64,000 nt of DNA from Candidatus Woesebacteria bacterium (GTDB taxonomy: Bacteria; Patescibacteriota; Microgenomatia; UBA8517), in contig CP058602.1 in NCBI GenBank assembly GCA_013426185.1, positions 399,123 through 463,122 of the forward strand, written 5' to 3'. Position 1 is the first letter of the stretch; every line of letters starts with the position of its first letter. Shown here one piece after another: positions 5,485 to 23,040 of the stretch. A program made the translations under genes and the position numbers. A model generated the notes under the pieces. That model saw only the letters and a program-made list of their open reading frames with translations. It did not search any database and was not told the origin of the DNA.

Positions 5485-6488
5485 TTTTTTGATATTTTAC
5501 AGAGCGTTGTTATTTTTTTCAAAAAAATTACAATATGTTTTTTCTGAAGAACCAAAACTAGTAATATCATAGTATAATCTCCTGTGCTTAGAAGTACCGA
5601 GACTGCTATATACATGGGTAACCAGACATAATAAAAATCAGATAGAGGAAACTCATTTAAAGAAAAAATATTAATAAATCGCCTACTATGAGGGGAAAAT
5701 AGATAGACCAAGATCCAAAAAATTAAATAAACAAGAAATAGAATCTTCATGTTAATATTTTTAACCAAAAAAGAAAAGAATAAAAGAAGCAACACTTCTG
5801 GCAAATATAAGATCTTAATAAGCTTTTGGCTAAATTTCACATCTTTAACAGTGGTTAAAGTTTTAACACCTGAACCTAGATCACTAGAAAAATCTTCTAT
5901 TTGGTGCATCAACATAGCTCTCAACCCCAAAACGAAAAGTGCAACCGAAAAAAGATAACCCTCAGTTTTATTGTAATCTAAAACAGAAAACACCAACAAA
6001 ACAGGCAGAGTCCTTTGGATCAAAGAGCCAACAACTATATCAAGAAAAGGCTTTTCCTTAAATCTCACTGGCGGAGAAGAATAAAAAACTACCAAAAAAA
6101 ACATTATTACCCACCAAAACATTATTTTTAAAACAAAACCTCCAAAAAACCACCAAAAAATAGAGGATAAAATAAAAAACAAAACCGAAGTTAAAAAAAT
6201 ATGATAATCTTTAATATTAGCACTTGTGCGAATTTTGCCAGCTTTTAAATCTACAAATTTATCCCAATAATCGTTAAGGATAGAGGCAAAAGAACCATAA
6301 AGCACAAAAAATGCAAGAAGAATCCAAAATACTATTCCAAAACCTGGCGTCAGTTCTTTGAGACCTCCTTTTTCTATAATAACTAGACCAATTGAAACAA
6401 TAAAAAAAATTAACTTTGTATTTGACCAAGAATGCCAACGAATAAACTTATTCAAGAATTCAAGTCTACCCGCTAATGATCCGAACAT
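5469..6488 (-). CDS. UbiA-family prenyltransferase
   Basis: NDYWDKFVD, YSSPPVRFK and HQIEDFSSDLGSGVKTL aspartate-rich motifs; multiple TM helices. Confidence 0.85.
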   Translation of the reverse strand: MFGSLAGRLEFLNKFIRWHSWSNTKLIFFIVSIGLVIIEKGGLKELTPGFGIVFWILLAFFVLYGSFASILNDYWDKFVDLKAGKIRTSANIKDYHIFLTSVLFFILSSIFWWFFGGFVLKIMFWWVIMFFLVVFYSSPPVRFKEKPFLDIVVGSLIQRTLPVLLVFSVLDYNKTEGYLFSVALFVLGLRAMLMHQIEDFSSDLGSGVKTLTTVKDVKFSQKLIKILYLPEVLLLLFFSFLVKNINMKILFLVYLIFWILVYLFSPHSRRFINIFSLNEFPLSDFYYVWLPMYIAVSVLLSTGDYTMILLVLVLQKKHIVIFLKKITTLCKISKKCNYL

Positions 6489-11225: not shown

Positions 11226-11305
11226 ACTCAGTGCAAAAAATATTAACAAGGTAAGTATAGCAAAGAAAACTGCTAAGTGATAATGAAGACTTAAGAAATC
11301 AAAAA

Positions 11306-11384
11306 CAGTAGGCTAAAGGCCGTAAAAGAAAAAAGCAACCAAAGAACGCTTCTTCCTTTTTAAAAAGACGCTTTAGCCTACTGT
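11306..11384 (-). terminator. large stem-loop closing the accessory operon (putative terminator or 3' end structure)
   Basis: ACAGTAGGCTAAAG ... CTTTAGCCTACTGT inverted repeat just beyond the last trailer arm. Confidence 0.5.
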
Positions 11385-11390
11385 AATTTT

Positions 11391-11403
11391 AAGCCAAACA
11401 AAC
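11391..11403 (-). promoter_or_regulatory. trailer arm of module 5
   Basis: AAGCCAAACAAAC is the exact reverse complement of 12921-12933. Confidence 0.7.
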
Positions 11404-11468
11404 TTAAAAGAGGTGAGGCAAACCCCTAAAAATAAGGATAAAAAAGGGTCTGCCCCACCTAATAAAAC

Positions 11469-12800
11469 TTAATACTGAGGATCAGGGTTCTCCTCACAAT
11501 ACTTCAAAATACGCCTGTGCGTCTCCTCTGGGGGAAGAAGTCTCCCTGCGCTGTCAAAGAAACAGTCTTTTTTGACTTTTTCCTGTTCCTTCCGAAGCGC
11601 CTCTGGGATTAACCTCTCGGAACGTCGGGTATAGGTTTCCAAAGGTATAACACTTATCTTTGGAAAAGGAATCTGAGGACTAGGGACGAGGCGAATTCGG
11701 GAAGTGGTATTATGATCCGCTGTCATCAGAGCAAACTGAGCTAGTGGATCCGCAGACTTGTTGCCATCTAAAACCGATACTATGTTAGTATTAGATGTAC
11801 CAAGCTTAGGATAAAAACCACCTCTTCCAACCATAGCCGCAACCCTACTTATCGCCTCAGTAGGAATTCCACCCGTAACCATTCCACCACCCGGTTCTGC
11901 TACAGCTCTAAAAGCATCAACTGCACGCGACGCGCTCTCATAAAAAGTAATACAATGGTAGTGCGCCCCAAGAACAAGGCTACGGTGGTACCCCCAAAGA
12001 AAGACCTGCCACTGAAATTCCTGCGGGACCCCCTTGGGAGCAGACCAAACTTCAACTAAGCCATGGGGGGTATTTTGGAGAAGATCTAAATAATCACTTA
12101 GGTCCTCACCACGCTCTCCCACAAAGACCAACACTGCACAAATCCTCGAGTCCTGAGTCAATTTTAAAACTTCCTTCCAGGCCTCAAGAATAAGAGTAGT
12201 TTTACCCAAGCCGCCCTCACCAAGAATATAAGTTGTTTGCCCATAACCTTGAACAGCTCCCAAAAGATAAATCATTCTCCAAGCTATACTTCCGCCTTTA
12301 TCCAGAGGGATTATCTCTTGAGGATATTCAGGCAACACTTCAAAGTCAAAAAATGGCCTATGAGAGAAAGGCTTTTGGCCATTTACGGAAGTGATACAGA
12401 CCAGATCACCCTCAACCCCCACCTCCACTTTATCCCCCATCCTCAAATTGTAATACTTCACTATAGGTGGAGGGACTTCCAAACCCCAGCTTTTCAAATC
12501 ATCCGAATTGATATCACCCTTTTTCAAAAGGTCGGCATAATCTGCAGGGTTTAGGTAGTGCGGGTAAGGGTTCGGAAGAGTCACACTCTCTCCATCAAAA
12601 GCCCAAAAACACGTGGGGCCGTCTGGCTTGACCAGGACTGCCTGAGAACTCTGGCCTATTATCTGATCAGATGGAAAAGAAGTTAAAACCCTTCGCAGGT
12701 CTTTTTCTAAAACCAAAACGGTCCTGGGAACAGGTTTATCCCCATAAAGGAGTAGCTCTTTAGGGTCAACCTCCTCCTGAATAACATAAGCAGAAATCAT
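11469..12800 (-). CDS. divergent transcription termination factor Rho paralogue
   Basis: OB-fold segment VPPPIVKYYNLRMGDKV (Rho VSPSQIRRFNLRTGDTI); GYGQ...GEGGLGKT; VGERGED (DERPEE); Q-loop GGMVTGGI (GKVLTGGV); FPKI...YTRRSERL (FPAI...GTRKEELL); strong SD AGGAGG. Confidence 0.8.
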   Translation of the reverse strand: MISAYVIQEEVDPKELLLYGDKPVPRTVLVLEKDLRRVLTSFPSDQIIGQSSQAVLVKPDGPTCFWAFDGESVTLPNPYPHYLNPADYADLLKKGDINSDDLKSWGLEVPPPIVKYYNLRMGDKVEVGVEGDLVCITSVNGQKPFSHRPFFDFEVLPEYPQEIIPLDKGGSIAWRMIYLLGAVQGYGQTTYILGEGGLGKTTLILEAWKEVLKLTQDSRICAVLVFVGERGEDLSDYLDLLQNTPHGLVEVWSAPKGVPQEFQWQVFLWGYHRSLVLGAHYHCITFYESASRAVDAFRAVAEPGGGMVTGGIPTEAISRVAAMVGRGGFYPKLGTSNTNIVSVLDGNKSADPLAQFALMTADHNTTSRIRLVPSPQIPFPKISVIPLETYTRRSERLIPEALRKEQEKVKKDCFFDSAGRLLPPEETHRRILKYCEENPDPQY

Positions 12801-12920
12801 AGTTCCTCCTTTTTCTATTACTATTTTACCCTCGAGGACTTGGCGCTATTTTTCTTTTTGGATACGCCACGCCATAGGCTTAAAGCAAAACTTAAAGACC
12901 ATGGCATGGCGTACCCAATC

Positions 12921-12942
12921 GTTTGTTTGGCTTTCAAAGTGC
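12921..12942 (-). promoter_or_regulatory. boxA-like motif GCACTTTGAAAG with leader arm of module 5
   Basis: Minus strand GCACTTTGAAAGCCAAACAAAC directly after a hairpin. Confidence 0.7.
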
Positions 12943-13075
12943 CCTTCTTTAATTAAAGCTATAGAAGGCTTATCTTCCTGCTTTAAGCAAAGAAGAATTA
13001 AATTTTTAAATAAATTCTCTAGTTTTAACCAACTAACAAAAGCTAGTTGGCTAAAAAAGAGACACAGCAAGAAAG
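12936..13075 (-). repeat. structured intergenic repeat copy D (trailer arm + three hairpins + boxA-like motif)
   Basis: Near-identical to 15182-15320 and 18768-18905. Confidence 0.9.
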
Positions 13076-13146
13076 TTAATTAAAAAGGGCGTTTACCAAA
13101 AGAAAAGGAGGATGGGAATCAAAGATCCCCATCCTCTGGGCCAAAC

Positions 13147-13329
13147 TCAAAAATTAGAGATCCAGTAATTAATGAGACTAAGTAATATACAGAGAAAAGA
13201 AAGCACCAAAAAACTTAAAACATAAAACAAGCAAGATCGCCACACCATTGTCTTTTCAAACCTGTTGGGATCTGGCAATTCAAATCTTACATATCTTCCC
13301 ATAGTTACCTCAACTCCATAAACTGGCAC
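13147..13329 (-). CDS. small membrane protein
   Basis: One TM segment; operon position; followed by a 3' hairpin at 13108-13136; start uncertain. Confidence 0.5.
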   Translation of the reverse strand: MPVYGVEVTMGRYVRFELPDPNRFEKTMVWRSCLFYVLSFLVLSFLCILLSLINYWISNF

Positions 13330-13799
13330 AAAAACAAATAGTAATACCGGCGAGAAGGAAACTCTTTCCTAACTGCTGGGCCAACAATAGCAAGACTCCA
13401 ATCAAGGTAAAAAGGTATTCCAGTGGATGAAACAGCAATACTATCAACGCCAAATTCAACCAGAGCCTGTTTCGGCCAAAGGGAAGCCATCGCTTCTAAA
13501 AATCTATCCACCCAAAGAGCCAGATTACAACCCTCGTCTAAAAACTCTTCGAGAGTAATGTAGCCATTATTAGGATAGACAATAGCTCTTTCACCCTCAG
13601 GACTAGCCTCAAACCCAAGGCCTAACTTTCTAGCCTGAAAGTTAAAAGCCTCTAGAACACGATCCCTCTGATCAGGGTTGCCAAAAATCTGGACTCTAGC
13701 AAATTCTGGGGAATATCTAAATCCCCAAACAGGAAAACTCCCATCCCAGGATCCAGGAAGAAAACAATTAAACGCAGGAGCATAAATATCTGTGTCCAC
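13305..13799 (-). CDS. hypothetical protein
   Basis: GTG start with strong SD GGGAGG. Confidence 0.7.
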   Translation of the reverse strand: MDTDIYAPAFNCFLPGSWDGSFPVWGFRYSPEFARVQIFGNPDQRDRVLEAFNFQARKLGLGFEASPEGERAIVYPNNGYITLEEFLDEGCNLALWVDRFLEAMASLWPKQALVEFGVDSIAVSSTGIPFYLDWSLAIVGPAVRKEFPSRRYYYLFLCQFMELR

Positions 13800-13814
13800 T
13801 TTTCCTCCCTCTTT

Positions 13815-15029
13815 TTACTCCTGATCGCTCCCTACATAGATAACAGAACCAGAAGGGCCTTGGCTTTCATCAACCTCATTAGAAGATGAAGAAGTTGAAG
13901 ACGAACTAAGAACCCTGCCAGTTAACAACGAAAAGAAAGGGCCCTGCTGCCCTTGCTGCTGCTGTTCCGCCTGCAACCGTCTGGACTCATCCCTCGCTCT
14001 GAAAAGAATCTCTTTCAGACGAGAAACATCATCCATATAAGGAAGAAAATCTGTGCCGGATTTATTAATGTAGATGATTAGCAAAGCCCCAGTGCCATAC
14101 TTCCTGTACCAGAGTGAAAGGAAAAATTCCTTAAACCACCCGGTTTTGAACCTGTTTTTTACCTCCGGATCTAAATCGACTGTAACATCCTCCGGATCTG
14201 CAGCCGTCAACACATCCTGGATACCAGAGTTGACAGTCAAAGAGGTAACAGGAAGCCCTGAATGGCCACCTGAAAAAAACAGATGCTTCAAAAAAGCCCG
14301 TGTAGTCTCAGGAAGTAAAAGTATTGCTAAGACTAAAATAATGCTCCCAAAGATCCACAAGTTAAAAATACCAACAATCAAAAGAAAAACCATAAAGATC
14401 AATGGCTTGATAACAGGCATCAAGCCAAGGAGGTTCTTCCTGATCCTTAACAAGACTGAATTGTGTGTAAAGACTGTAAAAATTGTCGTCCTCCGATCCC
14501 ACTCCAGAAGGGATAACTTCACAACAAGGACCAACACTAAAAGACAAACAAGAATTATATTTGCCCCAATATTTAGAGGCAAAGGTAAAAAAAACCATAA
14601 AGCGAAAGAGATAAACCAACCCAAGATGGTAACAAGTGGCAAAAATTGCCAGTTCATCACAAAATCCACTGTCGCCACTTTTGAAGGCAGCTGACGGTGG
14701 AATAAAATCTCACGATCTCGAGCGCGATAAACTAACTTGTCTTCTTTGGGAAGCCAGAAAAAACTAAATAGCCGGAGAAGAAAACCAGGTTTCTCCTCCG
14801 ACCCGACCGCAATTTTGGAAAAGATGGAATACAACAATATTACAGCCGCTAAAGTAGCAAGGCTGTAAAAAATGTAATATCCCGCTCTTCCAAAATCGAT
14901 CTGAAATTCAGGAAGACCAAAACTTACAAGGTCTATCCCAAAAAGGCTTAGCATAAAAAGGTAACCCAAAGCGGCTACCAAAACAAAAACCAAGGCCAAT
15001 ATAGCCCCTAAAAAATTCTTTCCTTCCAT
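13815..15029 (-). CDS. polytopic membrane protein with possible C-terminal bacterial PH-like domain
   Basis: About 6 TM segments; YGTGALLI...FLPYMDDVSRLKEIL resembles the bPH_2 pattern; ATG 15029 with SD GGGAG. Confidence 0.65.
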   Translation of the reverse strand: MEGKNFLGAILALVFVLVAALGYLFMLSLFGIDLVSFGLPEFQIDFGRAGYYIFYSLATLAAVILLYSIFSKIAVGSEEKPGFLLRLFSFFWLPKEDKLVYRARDREILFHRQLPSKVATVDFVMNWQFLPLVTILGWFISFALWFFLPLPLNIGANIILVCLLVLVLVVKLSLLEWDRRTTIFTVFTHNSVLLRIRKNLLGLMPVIKPLIFMVFLLIVGIFNLWIFGSIILVLAILLLPETTRAFLKHLFFSGGHSGLPVTSLTVNSGIQDVLTAADPEDVTVDLDPEVKNRFKTGWFKEFFLSLWYRKYGTGALLIIYINKSGTDFLPYMDDVSRLKEILFRARDESRRLQAEQQQQGQQGPFFSLLTGRVLSSSSTSSSSNEVDESQGPSGSVIYVGSDQE

Positions 15030-15060
15030 AGATCTCTCCCTTCCGAAAAACAAATTTTTA

Positions 15061-15322
15061 TGGCTCCTCTTGTTTTTGGGTGAGCCTCGATTAATCTCCT
15101 AAACTCAAATTAGAGAATTAAGAAACTAATCAAGGCTCACCCAGATTGGTGTGGGATAATCTTCTTTCTTGCTGTGTTGTTAAAGTGCCCTTCTTTACTT
15201 AAAGAATAGAAGGCTTATCTTCCTGCTTTAAGTAAAGAAGAATTAAATTTTTAAATAAATTCTCTAGTTTTAACCAACTAACAAAAGCTAGTTGGCTAAA
15301 AAAGAGACACAGCAAGAAAGAA
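15061..15322 (-). repeat. structured intergenic repeat copy A (trailer arm, hairpins, boxA-like GCACTTTAACAA, leader arm, 5' hairpin)
   Basis: About 260 bp nearly identical to 18646-18905; stems contain G-U pairs on the minus strand. Confidence 0.95.
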
Positions 15323-15377
15323 AAAAGAAGTGAAAGGACCGCCAAAAAGAAGGCTTTGAAACTTGAAAGCAGTCCTT

Positions 15378-16634
15378 TCACTTACAAAACAAAATAGAAT
15401 GGTCTTGGATATTCGAGGAGGCCTGCCTTAGCCAAACATGCGCATGGGCAGCCGTTGAATTCCCAATATTACCCACACTGCCTATTTCCCGTCCGGCTGT
15501 GACTTGGCTCCCCACGGCAAGATTTTCAGGAAAATGCAAATGCATTATCCCTAGTTCTGTACCGTTTTCCAACTTGAGGGTTAGAATAGAATTGCCCAAG
15601 CCATCATAAAACATAGCTGTGACAACCCCATTCATTGGAGTAAAAAGCGGAGTCCCATCAGAAGCTATATAATCATAGCCTTTGATGAGTCCACAGCTCC
15701 AACTTGTACCCTCACAGCCGGTGTGGTAACCTCGAGGACCAATGGTATACATGCCACCAATAAGGGGCTTGCAGTCACCATCGCCTCCAGGATTATCAAC
15801 CGGCAAACCTTCACCTGGGCTGTCATCATAGGCATAAGCAACTTTCGGAAAGATTCCAAGAAGTTGCAAAGCCTCCAAGACAATTTTTTTCCAGAACAAA
15901 GGCTTAAGAACTACACGGTTGGCCCCGGGGGTTGTTGCTATCGGCAATTTATCTCCAGTTCTACTCAGAAGCTCTGAGTAGAGCCGGTAGACAAATTCAC
16001 CCTGCGGAGGATAACGATTCCACCCCATAAACTCGTTAATAAAATTCTCCTTCCCCTTAGAATAGGCGTCATCCAGTCCTATCAGCTTGTAATAAACACA
16101 AGCCGCATAGGCTGACGCCCGCCTATCAGTTCGATCAGGGATAGGGAACACTTCCAAAAGTTCAGGGTAAAGCTCCGGGATTTGAACGGTCCAGAGCCTT
16201 TCCCATGTGGAATCTATAAACTGCCAAGTACCAATAGCAGTTGCCCTGTTTTTAGTCCTATAATTGGTATAGGAACTAGATTCACTAAAAGCAACCGCTA
16301 TGTTAAGGCGCGGATCACACCATGGGAAATGCATATAAGCCTCCCAGACCGGATCCCACACCTCAGGAGGAGCATAAAACTCTACCTCATTTCCATTCCA
16401 ATAGGTTATGGTGAATGGTTGGATAACTGTCTCTTTACCATCCACCACAACTGGAACGGAACGGATATTAAAATCCTGGACCCCCAGGAGTCCGGAAACG
16501 ACTTCTTCATAATGCTGGGGGTCCGTGTCATGATAGTAACCCAAGGATAAAACCATGGTTACTATCAAGACAAATAGGAAAAAAGGGGTATTAGCCAAAA
16601 GAAGAAGGAAGAGTTTAAGAGTCAGTTTCTTCAT
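15378..16634 (-). CDS. membrane-anchored lytic transglycosylase (SLT-like) + M23 peptidase cell-wall hydrolase
   Basis: IAVAFSESS...AIGTWQFIDSTW (SLT); GYDY..GTPLFTPMNGVV...MHL...VGNIGNSTAAHAH (M23); N-terminal TM. Confidence 0.85.
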   Translation of the reverse strand: MKKLTLKLFLLLLANTPFFLFVLIVTMVLSLGYYHDTDPQHYEEVVSGLLGVQDFNIRSVPVVVDGKETVIQPFTITYWNGNEVEFYAPPEVWDPVWEAYMHFPWCDPRLNIAVAFSESSSYTNYRTKNRATAIGTWQFIDSTWERLWTVQIPELYPELLEVFPIPDRTDRRASAYAACVYYKLIGLDDAYSKGKENFINEFMGWNRYPPQGEFVYRLYSELLSRTGDKLPIATTPGANRVVLKPLFWKKIVLEALQLLGIFPKVAYAYDDSPGEGLPVDNPGGDGDCKPLIGGMYTIGPRGYHTGCEGTSWSCGLIKGYDYIASDGTPLFTPMNGVVTAMFYDGLGNSILTLKLENGTELGIMHLHFPENLAVGSQVTAGREIGSVGNIGNSTAAHAHVWLRQASSNIQDHSILFCK

Positions 16635-18615
16635 CCTCTTCCCCTTTCGGCTTAATACGTTCGACAAAACTCAGAAGGGGGTAGTGGAGATGCTGATTCA
16701 GGGTGACTACTAACTCACCTGTTTGCGGGTTTATCACCTTAGCCAGATGACCTGTGCCCTCACCCATCTTAAACAAAAAATTAAAGGATTGGACCACATC
16801 TCCAATAACTTTCTTAAAATCATCGACATTCTGGATAGCTATCCAGATACGTATGCCAGCGTTTGCCCCTTGAGTTACAAACCAGTTAATAGTTCTTGCA
16901 AGATTAACTGCCGTGTCCCAAGGCAAGCTTCCCAAGACAGGGTGATCCTTCTGCTGGTTCGCCAAGTGCGACCAGTTATCTACAACCAACAGTAGATCAC
17001 TCCCAGTCTGAGGATAAAAATCTACCATAGCCCTTTTAAGGCTATTCAGAAAGCTATCCAGATACGCAAGCCAGCCAAGAGTATTGCCGGACTTAAGTTC
17101 AAAAGCGACAGACCTCGTTGGAAAACCGTATTTCTTCCACTCTTCAACAAGCTCTACAACATGGCCTTCTGCGATTTTGCCATATTCAACATGAAGCTGC
17201 AATTGTTTCTCTCTAACCTCTTTGTCAGTCGGATTGTTGTTGCTATCCTCATTTCTGAGAACATCCAATGCATCCGGCAGAATTAACTCAAATACCTTAC
17301 CACCTTCTTCACGTATTCTAGTCGCAGCTCTATCCAAACGGCTTGCAGTCAAATCCACCCACACTACAACTCTTTTTGCCTGAGCCGCTAACACCTGCAT
17401 AATAGTGGATTTACCCGCCTTCTTTGATGGGCCCACAAACACCCACGAAGGGTACAATTTGGGATTTATTAGATAGGGGGTTCTGCCCACATGGCCAAGA
17501 ACCAATGACCCGTTCGGATCTCCAACGGGTATAATGGCCTCGGCCACTTGCTGCAAAATCCCAGAAGGAGAGACACTAGTCCATCCTCTAACAGAGTGTC
17601 TTCCAAAACGGCCAGGCAAATTCGGACCGCCAGGGAAAAAGGCGCGCCAGGCAATTTCCAGATCAGCCCCTGTAACAAGCTTCCAGTTACTGATTTCCAG
17701 TAACTTTCCGCTCATTGACAATACTGACTGAGAGTCACCCTTGCGCACTTTTAACCGCAGAAGTGGCGTAACAAAAAGAAAGGGTGTTCCTCTCTGAAAT
17801 TCGAGGCGGAGGAAAATATCAACAGGCAGCTTTAGCAACTCGGCAAAATTCTTCGAGCTGAGCTGCCCGCCATCCCAGAAATAAAACGACCATTGATTGT
17901 CTATGACAACCTGATCGTCTACGAACACCACCGACCGCGGCGATGCATAGTCTAGGTGACACGCATCACCCGTCATAGGGTCGTGGGAAATATAGTTAAG
18001 CTTCGGAGGAAGACCATAAACTAATGAATGGAGCCCTGAACCTGCATTACTACTGTTCAGGACTTTCCCTCCAAAAACACCACTAAAACGTGGTGCGAAG
18101 TTGGGAGGAACAAAAAGCCAAAGAGTTCGAGCAATGTGGATAGAACTATCATCGTTCCCCACTGCCCATCTTTTTATAGCATCCAAGAAGCTCCTCCGAT
18201 AGTCGTTTGCCCCCTCAGTCAGACGAGACAGGTTTCCAAAAAACCGGCCAAACATCAGGGGGTGGCAAGTGAGCACCAAGCGCAAGTCATAGCATCCCAT
18301 CTCGGGAAGCTTGAATAGCGCCGGCACCTCAACTACCTTGCCATTACCGGCGTCAAATGGGTAAGGAGAAAGGGTACTCCCGTCAGTAAAAACCAATACA
18401 GAGTTGGCACCGCTCTTCCCAACAAAGGTAGCTTGTATCTTGTCACCGTCAACCACTTTTGACGGTAATACCCTAAGACCACCAAATAACCAAGCGGTAC
18501 TGGTGTCCTCGTTGTGCCCATTTACCCCGACAACAGGGTCTCTAGGAGGTGGTAAAAGAGGCTGATGTCTCCCATTAAGACCCAAACGATGGAGTAAAAG
18601 CTGAAGACTATTCAT
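16615..18615 (-). CDS. VirB4/HerA-like P-loop ATPase
   Basis: C-terminal VFVGPSKKAGKST (Walker A), LLLVVDNW (Walker B), GIRIWIAIQNVDDF sensor; large N-terminal domain. Confidence 0.65.
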   Translation of the reverse strand: MNSLQLLLHRLGLNGRHQPLLPPPRDPVVGVNGHNEDTSTAWLFGGLRVLPSKVVDGDKIQATFVGKSGANSVLVFTDGSTLSPYPFDAGNGKVVEVPALFKLPEMGCYDLRLVLTCHPLMFGRFFGNLSRLTEGANDYRRSFLDAIKRWAVGNDDSSIHIARTLWLFVPPNFAPRFSGVFGGKVLNSSNAGSGLHSLVYGLPPKLNYISHDPMTGDACHLDYASPRSVVFVDDQVVIDNQWSFYFWDGGQLSSKNFAELLKLPVDIFLRLEFQRGTPFLFVTPLLRLKVRKGDSQSVLSMSGKLLEISNWKLVTGADLEIAWRAFFPGGPNLPGRFGRHSVRGWTSVSPSGILQQVAEAIIPVGDPNGSLVLGHVGRTPYLINPKLYPSWVFVGPSKKAGKSTIMQVLAAQAKRVVVWVDLTASRLDRAATRIREEGGKVFELILPDALDVLRNEDSNNNPTDKEVREKQLQLHVEYGKIAEGHVVELVEEWKKYGFPTRSVAFELKSGNTLGWLAYLDSFLNSLKRAMVDFYPQTGSDLLLVVDNWSHLANQQKDHPVLGSLPWDTAVNLARTINWFVTQGANAGIRIWIAIQNVDDFKKVIGDVVQSFNFLFKMGEGTGHLAKVINPQTGELVVTLNQHLHYPLLSFVERIKPKGEEDEETDS

Positions 18616-18645
18616 AAAACTCTCCTTTCCGAAAAAAAATTTTAC

Positions 18646-18908
18646 TGGCTCCTCTTGTTTTTGGGTGAGCCTCGATTAATCTCCTAAACTCAAATCTAGA
18701 GAATTAAGAAACTAATCAAGGCTCACCCAGATTGGTGTGGGATAATCTTCTTTCTTGCTGTGTTGTTAAAGTGCCCTTCTTTACTTAAAGAATAGAAGGC
18801 TTATCTTCCTGCTTTAAGTAAAGAAGAATTAAATTTTTAGATAAATTCTCCAGTTTTAACCAACTAACAAAAGCTAGTTGGCTAAAAAAGAGACACAGCA
18901 AGAAATTT
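18646..18908 (-). repeat. structured intergenic repeat copy B
   Basis: Near-identical to copy A; trailer arm 18893-18908, boxA-like motif 18763-18774, leader arm 18748-18763. Confidence 0.95.
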
Positions 18909-19044
18909 TTGGATAAAAGAAAGTTAATCGGCAATTAACCAAAGCTTTTTTGGAATGCTTCAAATTAACTTTCTCAAACAAAAAAAGAGAGGATGGTAGT
19001 TCCTTGATTTGTTCCTTGAAAGAAAAGGAACTACCATCCCTCAA

Positions 19045-19371
19045 TTATCTCTTAATTACTCTTATTACCTTACTGTAAGGTTTATACGACCTTACTTTTT
19101 TCCGGTAAATCACAAACCTAACTAGCCTTGTGGCTAGAAAGACTAGTAATATACTTACCGAAAGGGGTAACAGGCAAGCAAGAGACAGACGGAAAAATAA
19201 AACTACTACTGGTTTCCATGCTACCGACAAAATGCAGAAAAAGGAAACCAGTAGCATCAAAAACGGGGCAATATACCTAGTGAAGTACCTCTTCACTGGA
19301 TAGTGCTCCGTTGGGTCAAACAAAAAATATAACCAGAACCTAACTTTTTCCCTAAGATTCCTCGTATTCAT
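19045..19371 (-). CDS. small two-TM membrane protein (position of VirB3/PrgI-like genes)
   Basis: Two hydrophobic segments, SD GGAGG; family inferred only from position. Confidence 0.65.
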   Translation of the reverse strand: MNTRNLREKVRFWLYFLFDPTEHYPVKRYFTRYIAPFLMLLVSFFCILSVAWKPVVVLFFRLSLACLLPLSVSILLVFLATRLVRFVIYRKKVRSYKPYSKVIRVIKR

Positions 19372-19380
19372 CTTAACCTC

Positions 19381-20769
19381 CTAGGGAATTACAATATCGT
19401 CTGAATTAGAAAGCTGGGAAATTTTTTCCCCAAGACTGGTAAGGTTGGGGTCTCCCTTAGCCTTACTGGCAGCTTGGAGAATACCACCAAACACCTTCTC
19501 CTTGGGATAGGCCTGTTGCAGGTCTTGGCCTGCCTCTTTAGCAGCTTTCCTATCAATCAATCCCTCTGCTACCTGTGTAGTAGCGTTGACAACAGGGATA
19601 ACGATAGGTGCCGCCTCAGGGGCTGCCACAGCTGTCACTAAATTTACAGCCGTAGCCACCTTACCCACAGCCGCCTTTGCCTTACTAGCCTCCTCTTGCG
19701 GCTTGGATGGAGAAGGCGTTGGAGAAGACTGGTTAGGGCCATTCTCTCCCGGGCTTGGGGGGATGACAACATCTCCGGAAGGAACATCTGTTGGCCCACT
19801 GGAAGTGAAACCACTATCCCCAGCCGGTCCAGAAGGGACATCTCGTTCAGAGCCAGAAGAGGAAGAGCCAGCTGTTAGCAAAGGAACAAATTCTTCGGGA
19901 ACTACAACTTCTCCCCCTCCGCTTCTACTAGCTCGCCTACTCCTCTCCCACGGTTCTAAAACAGAATTCCAGTCTACCGGAGGTCTTTCCTTGCTCACAC
20001 CCTCTATAGCCGTTTCTTCTTCATCCCTAAATTCGGGAGTGAGGATTGCGGCCAGGAAAGGTACGGTGACATAACAAAAGAACATTGTCAAAATAACTGT
20101 CCCCGTATAAAACACATTTACTAGGACAGTTACTGGACCAAAAGCCCAATCAGGATAATTGCTTCCAAAGAATTGAACGATGGCATTGAAAAGGGCAAGA
20201 AAAATTGCCCATCCAAAAACCTCGCCAATTATGAAAGCAATACCCTTAATTGATCGCCCCAAAATGGACCAAGATAGAGCAACGATAGCTGCAATCAACA
20301 TAACGACCTGCCACCTTGAGACAATCAAAGGGATCAGAAAAGTCAACGTAACCCCCCATGCCGCACTTGCCAAATTTCCCAAATCAGGAGACAACTCCCA
20401 CCGCATGGCGGTAAGGATTTTCTCCAGCCTAAGTTCGGCGGGTAAGACTATTTCACCCAATCTGGTAGTGAAGTCTATAAATAACAACACTACCATCGGG
20501 ATAGAGAACATCAATATCATGCTAGTTACAAGCCCAGCACTAACAACTTTCCCTCTACCCACACTACGTGCAAGGGATATAAGCGCTGAGATAAAACCAG
20601 CAAGGATTAAAAAAATCAAGACCGGACCAAGATACTGTTGAATTTCCTGCGGCGAGATCTTTAAAAAAAAGCTGTCCCGCCAGTGTCCTTCAACAGCATC
20701 TGGGATTTGACACCCCGTCAGCAGAAGACTGCCGACGGTTAAGAAGAAAAATGCCGGCAGTCTCTTCAT
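19381..20769 (-). CDS. polytopic membrane protein with lipoprotein signal and Pro/Ser/Gly-rich tail (VirB6-like architecture)
   Basis: LLTGC lipobox, about 6 TM helices, low-complexity C-terminus; SD GGAGG. Confidence 0.65.
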   Translation of the reverse strand: MKRLPAFFFLTVGSLLLTGCQIPDAVEGHWRDSFFLKISPQEIQQYLGPVLIFLILAGFISALISLARSVGRGKVVSAGLVTSMILMFSIPMVVLLFIDFTTRLGEIVLPAELRLEKILTAMRWELSPDLGNLASAAWGVTLTFLIPLIVSRWQVVMLIAAIVALSWSILGRSIKGIAFIIGEVFGWAIFLALFNAIVQFFGSNYPDWAFGPVTVLVNVFYTGTVILTMFFCYVTVPFLAAILTPEFRDEEETAIEGVSKERPPVDWNSVLEPWERSRRASRSGGGEVVVPEEFVPLLTAGSSSSGSERDVPSGPAGDSGFTSSGPTDVPSGDVVIPPSPGENGPNQSSPTPSPSKPQEEASKAKAAVGKVATAVNLVTAVAAPEAAPIVIPVVNATTQVAEGLIDRKAAKEAGQDLQQAYPKEKVFGGILQAASKAKGDPNLTSLGEKISQLSNSDDIVIP

Positions 20770-20785
20770 TGCCCCTCCTATAGTA

Positions 20786-21070
20786 CTACGGCAACAGGCT
20801 GGGGGCGCTTCCCGAAAAGACAGAGTTGTAGATCCCCTCTGCCCATCTTACGATTTGAGCGTTGGAGAGGTTCATGATATCCCTAAAGCCGACTACCACA
20901 AAGGCCGCTGCAATTAACACGCCAAAAATAATTACCCCGAGGCCCCAAACAGTTTGGTTGCCTCTCCAAACGCCGGAGACCCCGGCTTGAGAAAACAGGG
21001 CCTGGATTAAAAAATACAGGCCAAAAACTATCATCGCGATGCCAGCGACAACTCCTACAAAAGCAATCAT
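20786..21070 (-). CDS. small hydrophobic pilin-like protein (VirB2/TrbC-like)
   Basis: Two Gly-rich TM helices; first gene of module 2; SD AAGGAG. Confidence 0.55.
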   Translation of the reverse strand: MIAFVGVVAGIAMIVFGLYFLIQALFSQAGVSGVWRGNQTVWGLGVIIFGVLIAAAFVVVGFRDIMNLSNAQIVRWAEGIYNSVFSGSAPSLLP

Positions 21071-21106
21071 TTTACACTCTCCTTCTGAAGATTGGGTTAG
21101 ATTTTA

Positions 21107-21397
21107 GGCTCCTCTTGTTTTTGGGTGAGCCTCGATTAATCTCCTAAACTCAAATTAGAGAATTAAGAAATTAATCAAGGCTCACCCAATTTGGGATTTT
21201 TGTTAAAAAGGTTCTCTTGTCGCCTCAAATTTCTTGCTGTGTTGTTAATGTGCTCTCCTTTACCAAGTTAAAAGAAGGGCAACCCTTCTTTTCTTAAGGC
21301 AAAGAAAATCAAACTTTTGAAGACAAAACTTAATTTGTCTTCAAAACTAAACACTCAAATAATCTTAAGTGCTTAGTTTTAAATAGGGGTGTAATTG
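21107..21397 (-). repeat. structured intergenic element copy C
   Basis: 21107-21188 identical in large part to copies A/B; boxA-like GCACATTAACAA 21242-21253; leader arm 21227-21242; trailer arm 21383-21397; spacer hairpins differ in sequence but not in layout. Confidence 0.9.
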
Positions 21398-21483
21398 AGA
21401 AAGACCTGCTGGTGGAGACGAGATTAAAAAACGCGCAAAATGCGTTTTAATCTTTGCCAACCACCAGCAGGATGAATTTAAAA

Positions 21484-21564
21484 TGGTGGGGAGAGGATTC
21501 GAACCTCCTTATTCCTGGAGTATAAAATTCCAGCGCTCATCCTTTCTCTTTGAGCTTCCCCACC
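21484..21564 (-). ncRNA. tRNA-like element with non-canonical 9-nt anticodon loop
   Basis: GGTGGGG AA GCTC-13nt-GAGC G CTGGA-ATTTTATAC-TCCAG GAATAA GGAGG-TTCGAAT-CCTCT CCCCACC A folds as a full cloverleaf. Confidence 0.8.
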
Positions 21565-21575
21565 AATACCAATAA

Positions 21576-22061
21576 TTACCGATAACGACGCCACTTTTTC
21601 TGGCCGGCACGGTCAACAAATTCCTGCCAGACAGCAACCCCTTCTGGAATATCCTCTTCCCGTGTGAAGAAAACAGGGTCGCCACCCATATTAGCCAAGA
21701 AACGACCGGTTGGCCTTTCTTTATTGCTATTACCAGGCGTCGCTTTTTTTTGGCCCTGAGGACGATTGCCTTTTTCTTCCTCTTCCATCTGCGCGAGGAC
21801 TTCTCGCACCACCCACTGTGGGCAGAAATCCTCAAAGTTGGCGAGGAAGTAAAAAACAAGGACATCGTCCAAGGGACCCACAATAAGATCCGGAAATACA
21901 ACCCAAAGAAATCCGGCCACAAAACCAAGCTTAAGCCAACCGGAAACTCTGGGATCTTTTAAGAGCCGAATTTTAAGCTTCAGACCTTTTAAAATCTGAA
22001 GCATAATTCCAGCTCTTTCCGGATCACGGCGAACAGGGGATTTGGGTTGGGGAGTCGCCAT
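21576..22061 (-). CDS. YkvA/DUF1232-family membrane protein
   Basis: LLKDPRVSGWLK...PDLIVGPLDDVLV; SD GAAGGAGGT. Confidence 0.75.
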   Translation of the reverse strand: MATPQPKSPVRRDPERAGIMLQILKGLKLKIRLLKDPRVSGWLKLGFVAGFLWVVFPDLIVGPLDDVLVFYFLANFEDFCPQWVVREVLAQMEEEEKGNRPQGQKKATPGNSNKERPTGRFLANMGGDPVFFTREEDIPEGVAVWQEFVDRAGQKKWRRYR

Positions 22062-22129
22062 AAAAAGACCTCCTTCTACTCCCCAACCCTTAAATATCCC
22101 TCACGGCTGGGGAGCATCAGAAAAGGAAC

Positions 22130-22588
22130 TCAAGCCGTAGTAGCCGGCTCGGCAGCCTTTTTCGCATTGCCATTTTCGTTGTCTTGGTACTCCTTGTAAC
22201 GTTTTTGCCAAGGCCTATCTTTGATAGCTTTGATGAACTCATCCTTAACTTGCCGAAGCTGCTCGTCAGAACAACCGAGGTCTTTCATTACCAACGTCAG
22301 CAGCCAAGGGGTATTATGCCGAGTTACATCAAAACGTCGGCCATTTGGTAAACAGATAAACAATCTACCACCTTCGAAAGAGAAGTGTGGCACAGAAGGA
22401 CGACTCAAGCGAGAAACAATTTCTGCAGCCACTCTCGCAGGGCCCGCAAAGGAAACATTGTTTGGACCCGTCAGAATCACCTTCTGTTCACCCATACCAT
22501 CCCAATCGCCTGGAGTAAAAAATCTTGGGAAGACCTCCGGGTTCTCAGCCTTTATTTCAAATGAGCCAATTCTCAACGTGCCAGACAT
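22130..22588 (-). CDS. hypothetical protein (first gene of the operon)
   Basis: ATG with SD AAGGAG. Confidence 0.7.
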   Translation of the reverse strand: MSGTLRIGSFEIKAENPEVFPRFFTPGDWDGMGEQKVILTGPNNVSFAGPARVAAEIVSRLSRPSVPHFSFEGGRLFICLPNGRRFDVTRHNTPWLLTLVMKDLGCSDEQLRQVKDEFIKAIKDRPWQKRYKEYQDNENGNAKKAAEPATTA

Positions 22589-22879
22589 ATCTCACTCTCC
22601 TTAAACGAATGAAAAGATTTTTACTGACTTACAGAACTTACAGAAATTAAAAACCCGGTTTCCTCAATATGACCTCCTTCCTTAATTGAAAGAAAAAACT
22701 ATGTGCCCTGCTTTTTCTTTTTAGCTTGGGGCCGGAATACTTTTAAACTTAATAAACAATAAACACAAAAACAAAAATAATAAAAATGGAAAACAATTTT
22801 AAGAAGACTGTTGAAGAAATAACGCTTAAAAGCATTCCTGCCCCAAGCTTTTTGGCCCAAACTACCCCTGTCTTAATTC

Positions 22880-22923
22880 CAATTACACCCCTATGTTAAG
22901 GTGCAATTCCTTTTTCAAGGAAT
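22880..22923 (-). promoter_or_regulatory. boxB-like GAAA hairpin + boxA-like GCACCTTAACA + leader arm of module 1
   Basis: Minus strand ATTCCTT-GAAA-AAGGAAT T GCACCTTAAC ATAGGGGTGTAATTG; the arm is complementary to 21383-21397. Confidence 0.75.
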
Positions 22924-23011: not shown

Positions 23012-23040
23012 ATTATAAAAAAACTTTTATTTATTGTCAA
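23012..23040 (-). promoter_or_regulatory. consensus sigma70 promoter driving the 11.3-23 kb operon
   Basis: TTGACA (23040-23035), 17 bp, TATAAT (23017-23012). Confidence 0.9.

Follow-up and report, generated by a model that had tools for sequence, protein, structure and literature searches.

A non-decoding tRNA-like cloverleaf in a Woesebacteria genomic island and its proposed role at the 3′ end of an mRNA

Introduction

The genome of a Candidatus Woesebacteria bacterium carries a tRNA-like cloverleaf that is real, transcribed and non-decoding. It occupies positions 21484..21564 on the minus strand of the window, the 64,000-nucleotide stretch of contig CP058602.1 analysed here, and is recognized by its sequence, its fold, the Rfam tRNA model and RNA contigs of a close allele. 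The reading proposed for it, which we hold at about even odds (roughly 0.5), is that the cloverleaf stays on the first mRNA of a genomic island, where it would form and shield the 3′ end. Among the papers found in the literature searched (mostly freely accessible), none describes this cloverleaf or the island in its title or at the start of its abstract.

Anatomy of the cloverleaf

An earlier note on this DNA had described four intact stems, an A at position 8, a 13-nt D loop, a 9-nt anticodon loop and a TTCGAAT loop, and the sequence at 21564-21484 shows all of them. On the minus strand, the acceptor stem (21564-21558 paired with 21491-21485) encloses A8 (21557), the D arm with its 13-nt loop (21555-21535), the anticodon arm (21533-21515, with the 9-nt loop at 21528-21520), a 6-nt variable region (21514-21509) and the T arm with its TTCGAAT loop (21508-21492). 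The discriminator is an A (21484), and CCA is not encoded. With permissive filters, the Rfam tRNA model scores the element at 40.2 bits (E 1.1e-6) against a gathering score of 29. ARAGORN, which the note had named as a check, does not call the window cloverleaf, and a fast-filter Rfam scan misses it as well. The folding z-score is -2.78, with 1 of 200 shuffles equally stable, and a scan for the combined acceptor, D and T arms returned one match in the 11.85-kb island and none in 300 Markov simulations.

The element shares with tRNAs its four stems, a 7 + 5 bp acceptor branch and a T loop of the form TTCRANY. One correction to the note concerns the stem lengths: A8 lets the window allele fold an 8-bp acceptor and a 4-bp T stem, and this is its minimum-energy fold, in which the two stems together still make 12 bp. 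The probability of an 8:65 pair in the predicted fold is 0.61 in the window allele and 0.0 in the other four alleles. In its sequence context, pairing is predicted at 0.99-1.0 for the acceptor stem and at a lower value, 0.74, for the T stem. A decoding tRNA would have U33 in an anticodon loop of 7 nt and an anticodon that is conserved, a combination not found here; in place of U8 and a normal D loop with GG, the window allele has A8 and the 13-nt D loop, whose last position is U, not A. Every one of the 46 intron-less host tRNAs combines a 7-nt anticodon loop with U33 and a D-loop GG, so the cloverleaf departs from them all. Starting at its first U-turn, the anticodon loop reads UUU and then A, which makes it look like a lysine relic. 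For the cloverleaves of two metagenomic contigs (L004 and L008), the best host alignments are to tRNA-Lys genes, a weak hint for origin, and the body of the element probably comes from a captured tRNA gene.

Genomic setting

The host genome is a single contig of 818,817 bp with 47 tRNA genes and one tmRNA, and homologues of the neighbouring proteins are labelled Ca. Woesebacteria. The cloverleaf is located in an island of raised GC content, at about 11,300-22,700, between the VKOR gene and secA; in both same-genus genomes, no island is present between these two genes. The island is built of modules on one strand with repeats between them, and its genes encode, among others, an M23/SLT protein, a P-loop protein and a distant Rho relative. 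The accessible part of a preprint on the Patescibacteria T4SS (10.1101/2025.01.22.634366) does not mention tRNA, Rho or M23.

The first module begins, on the minus strand, with a predicted sigma-70-type promoter (23012..23040; a 12/12 pattern match only), a hairpin with a U tract (22962-22938) and a boxA-like motif (22906-22894) that shares 10 of 13 bases with the motif preceding the host rRNA genes and that we take to be a boxA. NusB is encoded in the host genome. Directly after the motif stands the 5′ arm (22893-22880) of a 14-bp closing stem, whose 3′ arm (21384..21397, minus) is the perfect complement of 22880-22893 and is predicted to pair with it when the module is folded as a whole. The first gene of the module (22130..22588, minus) encodes a fast-diverging 152-aa protein without a family match. 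A 161-aa gene (21576..22061, minus) follows; its stop codon (21578-21576) and 11 further bases precede G+1 of the cloverleaf. Located 12 nt past the cloverleaf, a 67-nt hairpin of the predicted fold (21405..21471, minus) is a candidate for a cut site or for a cause of library dropout, and no RNA contig covers it. The description of the 161-aa neighbour as YkvA-like in the earlier note is not a Pfam call and corresponds to a distant resemblance to DUF1232/YkvA: none of its eight homologues matches the Pfam family, and DUF1232 is hit only by a more distant match, L014 (E 2.7e-8).

The downstream modules (11469..21070, minus), with repeated boxA-like spacers between them, encode membrane proteins of 94 and 462 aa, a 108-aa protein, a 666-aa P-loop protein, the M23/SLT protein, proteins of 412 and 164 aa, and the distant Rho relative. 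A layout copied from the host rRNA units is seen at 22906-22880, at 21253-21225 and in repeats near 18750 and 15165 of the window, with its counterparts in the host near 773,935, 780,307 and 780,408 of genome C1. The boxA-like motif recurs in the islands of three further genomes, G257, G841 and G630. By eye, hammerhead-like cores can be made out in spacers of related islands, at about 14,250-14,320 of contig L009 and in L025, none of them listed by Rfam at E 0.05; Rfam microRNA matches on the long hairpins all fall under their gathering scores. In L025, which belongs to G257, the island is followed, at 6061-6133 and just upstream of that, by a short DUF1232-like frame, recognized by eye, and by a canonical tRNA-Thr(CGU) on the same strand.

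The host 16S and 23S units share the module layout of a hairpin with a U tract, a boxA-like motif and long paired arms. The analogy with rrn spacer tRNAs drawn in the earlier note is sound for this leader and arm layout and breaks down for the tRNA itself: spacer tRNAs are canonical and stand between processing stems, and the host tRNA-Ala precedes the second boxA and does not fall within the 23S stem, whereas the cloverleaf is non-canonical and lies inside the module stem. At 774,070-785,000 of genome C1, the 16S and 23S units are about 3 kb apart with a tRNA-Ile on the opposite strand between them, and the 16S gene carries insertions, one with an open-frame-like stretch.

The host encodes RNase III, PNPase and a CCA-adding enzyme, and it has both the RNA (99.3 bits, E 1e-31) and the protein of RNase P. 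A search of the host genome with TIGR02651 found no RNase Z; its sole weak match is a 566-aa protein that we presume, from a motif, to be RNase J-like. Nor was a member of the RNase R/II family found in this genome. CCA is encoded in only 8 of the 43 placed host tRNAs and is missing from 35, from which we infer that trimming and tailing the 3′ ends of cloverleaves in general must be routine for the cell. Genome C1 also contains a second, degenerate tRNA-Leu(UAG)-like gene (621001-621089) and, like G035, a tRNA-Ile with the anticodon UAU (732521-732594 in C1), which is unusual in bacteria.

Homologues and alleles

A metagenome scan yielded 12 loci, from which L011, L013 and L014 were dropped as other DUF1232-type genes outside the island and L006 was left out because it ends before the stop of the gene. 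Among the eight remaining island contigs, six carry the cloverleaf behind the same gene (L003, L007, L005, L004, L008 and L009), and in L003 and L007 it is identical to that of the window. The cloverleaf is absent behind the gene in the other two (L010 and L012), and no tRNA-like match lies inside the islands of G257, G841 and G630. By lineage, it is found in two of seven and absent from five. Plain hairpins take its place behind the gene in G630, L010 and L012. A DNA search in 60 relatives matched only the gene in G035, and the G035 contigs are the only genome contigs matched by the Rho-like alignment. A candidate island relative, G019, was rejected since its match is another Rho-like gene and no island is present. 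Five viral-contig matches to the module-arm pattern were set aside as chance, having no island proteins; in viral contigs, no match to the neighbour protein was confirmed and the Rho-like alignment gave one weak match.

Across the five distinct alleles, stem pairing is kept in 103 of 105 cells and the elbow-forming T loop is intact throughout. The anticodon loops measure 9, 9, 15, 21 and 7 nt, the 7-nt one with A33, and the D loops 13, 13, 7, 7 and 7 nt. U8 is present in the four non-window alleles, and the 7-nt D loop with GG in three. Three homologous copies are labelled Leu, Phe and Arg by ARAGORN, so there is no anticodon common to the alleles. Stems that are kept while loops range from 7 to 21 nt without a shared anticodon make a suppressor or an attachment site unlikely. 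The earlier note had proposed a search of relatives for just such kept stems and variable loops and had favoured a non-decoding, structural role, which these homologues, none of them canonical tRNAs, bear out. Its preference for such a role over decay is matched by the kept stems, but decay retains some probability: A8, the enlarged D loop and, in L005, the loss of one D-stem pair are lesions, and five of seven lineages lack the element.

In all five close contigs the acceptor and T arms are identical to the window at 30-32 of 32 positions, and the fourfold sites of the adjacent gene in the same contigs range in identity from 35/56 to 79/79; against these sites, conservation of the two arms reaches p = 0.001 for L008 and p = 0.08 for L004. 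L007 is identical to the window over all 81 nt, beside a gene that has changed at 13 of 60 fourfold sites (p = 7e-6). When the window group is compared with L004/L008, the acceptor and T arms match at 30 of 32 positions and the middle part at 20 of 43-48, with 23-28 middle positions differing. The anticodon stems of the window and L008 differ at five positions, including two two-sided changes, with all pairs kept; such retention arose by chance in 1-21% of simulations, depending on transition bias. The 120 nt downstream of the cloverleaf are as conserved as its top half (112-120/120), so recent recombination could explain the invariance. The two-sided changes in the acceptor and T stems all come from one sequence, L009, which is the same DNA as G035. 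Here about 250 nt separate the gene from the cloverleaf, which is similar to tRNA-Arg(UCG) but has A33 and may be a separate tRNA capture. A second tRNA-Arg(UCG) is not among the 37 tRNA matches of G035, an incomplete assembly from which several other tRNAs are missing too. Outside the island, G035 contig C27 (L105) carries at 968-1041 a non-canonical tRNA with a 6-nt anticodon loop, whose 3′ end is partly repeated about 90 nt later.

RNA contigs across the cloverleaf

The RNA evidence comes from Logan contigs, not reads, in six RNA runs (X15-X20), each covering a small share of the region. In X15, X16 and X17, contigs run from inside the 161-aa gene across +1 and end at 21493, 21487 and 21490, with no loose end; they stop 3-9 nt short of the discriminator and cover 72-78 of the 81 nt of the cloverleaf. 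The +1 position is thereby bridged in all three runs whose contigs reach it. These runs carry three study codes, with X16 and X17 possibly from one campaign, and the bridging contigs represent the L005 allele, which has U8; none is seen for the A8 allele of the window. The contig of X18, another allele, leaves the window sequence near the stop, and those of X19 and X20 do not reach the cloverleaf. On L005, X15 is represented by six contigs without a single difference, which cover modules 1 and 2 and leave the 1.8-kb flank bare, and a DNA run, X10, spans the cloverleaf region. The confinement of the X15 contigs to the coding modules of the island is a weak hint that they derive from RNA rather than DNA. 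Their depth is 14.5 over the gene and cloverleaf and 2.5-7.2 elsewhere, figures that are not an expression ranking.

Long hairpins elsewhere in L005 (1715-1841, 2430-2471 and 3347-3414) likewise interrupt the contigs. The contigs of the cloverleaf end 16-22 nt ahead of the 67-nt hairpin, and that of the first gene ends 6 nt ahead of its own hairpin. The stop at the cloverleaf could therefore reflect the 67-nt hairpin instead, and missing coverage of a spacer alone proves nothing. Unlike the spacer hairpins, the cloverleaf is included in the contigs over 72-78 of its 81 nt and so travels with the mRNA. At the opposite end, the contigs of X15-X18 start within 4 nt of each other, at 22722-22725 of the window, at the foot of a long leader hairpin; this shared start marks either 5′ processing of the RNA or the point at which reverse transcriptase stopped.

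Proposed role and alternative readings

The contigs join the gene to the cloverleaf and stop at its 3′ side, which argues for a 3′-terminal structure that is not efficiently cut off by RNase P. In the proposed mechanism, transcription from the promoter at 23040 would yield one long RNA of the operon. A downstream cut, for which RNase III acting at the module stem or at the 67-nt hairpin is a candidate, would provide an entry point for PNPase, whose trimming would halt at the GC-rich acceptor/T helix. CCA may finally be added by the host enzyme, on which most host tRNAs must also rely, and the cloverleaf would stabilize the mRNA. That lineages without the cloverleaf have plain long hairpins fits an exchangeable end structure. 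A bolder extension, which we consider highly improbable, is that an mRNA ending in a CCA-tailed tRNA mimic, from modules cut as rRNA-style units, is tagged for the island's Rho-like motor and putative secretion-type apparatus, for instance for RNA export to a host cell.

Two other readings, both unlikely though worth weighing, can coexist with the cloverleaf as an mRNA 3′-end structure. One is that RNase P cuts at +1, freeing the mRNA 3′ end and releasing a small tRNA-like RNA, as at the t-elements of ccmC and nad6. The presence of RNase P RNA and protein and of G+1 and U-1 in the four close alleles speaks for such a cut, but U-1 is predicted to pair with A73, and +1 is bridged in every run that reaches it, whereas the uncut form of ccmC is undetectable according to the accessible text of PMC1920247. 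Contigs cannot fix an RNA end, and partial cleavage by RNase P would leave a contig unbroken. The determinants of RNase P were taken from the accessible part of PMC11143913. A paired 5′ leader that blocks the enzyme was rejected, because the mean unpaired probability at -6..-1 (0.27-0.60) lies within the host range (0.08-0.95). The bridging of +1 and the failure of TIGR02651 to detect RNase Z likewise weaken the suggestion of the earlier note that the element is a signal for release by RNase P/Z. The other reading takes the cloverleaf for a pseudo-tRNA that was captured into module 1 as a passenger and is now decaying, with the neighbouring hairpins setting the RNA end. Its lesions do vary by allele, with A8 in the window, C opposite A in the D stem of L005, G9 in L008 and expanded loops; the G035 copy is close to tRNA-Arg(UCG) with A33, the flanks are equally conserved, and most lineages lack the element. 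Against decay, nearly all stem cells pair despite the 23-28 differing middle positions, and the 81 nt of L007 are unchanged beside a gene that has diverged at its fourfold sites.

The remaining readings find less room. A tRNA mimic released to act in trans, as a decoy for an anticodon nuclease or as a ligand of the ribosome or a T-box, would profit from the intact elbow-forming T loop and the encoded CCA-adding enzyme; that neither anticodon nor loop size is shared, and that the window allele has A8 and a U for A at the last D-loop position, makes this highly improbable. We regard an ochre or frameshift suppressor as less probable again, in agreement with the earlier note. TTA is indeed central in the 9-nt loop and TAA is the stop of 6 of 10 island genes, but the suppressor is unsupported because TTA is not conserved: sister alleles have loops of 15 and 21 nt, a TTA anticodon would put a pyrimidine at 37 and A at 32, and the U-turn reading yields the lysine-like relic. 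The G035 copy might still decode arginine, given that no other tRNA-Arg(UCG) is among the matches from that incomplete genome. The least credible reading, and one largely refuted, is the remnant of an attachment site of an integrative element, to which the higher GC of the island and its absence between VKOR and secA in both same-genus genomes had pointed. The cloverleaf lies 1.5 kb inside the island and not at its edge, no integrase family matches any of the 10 long island ORFs, and a search with the exact T arm and acceptor pattern gave 0 viral-contig matches. The earlier note would have counted identity of the 3′ part with a chromosomal tRNA against its own reading, but none is identical; the best, tRNA-Ser(UGA), matches at 22 of 23 nt, and the longest shared stretch is 16 nt.

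Comparison with known systems

Judged by analogy, the cloverleaf would work most like the t-elements of plant mitochondria. In the accessible text of PMC1920247 and PMC11658184, these too are non-decoding, tRNA-derived cloverleaves with a conserved T arm and no encoded CCA at an mRNA end; the 5′ leader of plant cox1 terminates in a t-element to which C and A residues have been added, and t-elements located 3′ of ccmC and nad6 are efficiently cut by RNase P, those located 5′ by RNase Z. The cloverleaf has the tRNA-derived fold and T-arm motif without a decoding loop, and it may coincide with an mRNA end: RNA contigs of three runs stop 3-9 nt short of position 73, although contigs cannot fix an end. 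Unlike t-elements, which are mitochondrial by definition, it lies on a bacterial chromosome, the contigs keep it on the mRNA, and RNase Z was not found. A bacterial counterpart is tRNA-Other of Bacillus cereus, which the accessible text of PMC3399842 describes as a pseudo-tRNA at a genomic island that translation does not use and that is expressed within longer RNAs. That element flanks its island and belongs to a regulatory RNA, and its sequence hardly varies between strains, whereas the cloverleaf is inside an operon, 11 nt past a coding gene, and its anticodon arms vary by strain.

Allo-tRNAs offer a likeness in the 8/4 acceptor branch that the window A8 allele can fold, and some allo-tRNA-like genes are not translated, as far as the accessible text of PMC5389517 and PMC7609411 goes. 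The cloverleaf differs from them in that the 8/4 fold is possible in one of five alleles, a long variable arm is lacking and the discriminator is A. A further comparison is with plant RNA viruses, whose tRNA-like structures at the 3′ end are pseudoknotted and receive an amino acid from synthetases of the host. Like these structures, the cloverleaf would form a tRNA mimic at the 3′ end of a coding RNA; unlike them, it is a plain cloverleaf from a tRNA gene, and charging is not indicated.

Implications

The tRNA shape as the end of an mRNA is known from plant mitochondria, and hardly from bacteria. If the proposed role is true, a bacterium would here have reused a tRNA gene as an mRNA 3′ end, with a decoding arm that drifts freely among strains of a single species group. 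Elements of this class are missed by ARAGORN and by fast Rfam scans, or are mislabelled as tRNAs for Leu, Phe or Arg. Here the cloverleaf stands in a transcribed island with modules laid out like rRNA operons, so that it would offer a small, testable handle on how mRNA ends are shaped in reduced Patescibacteria without a recognizable RNase Z or RNase R.
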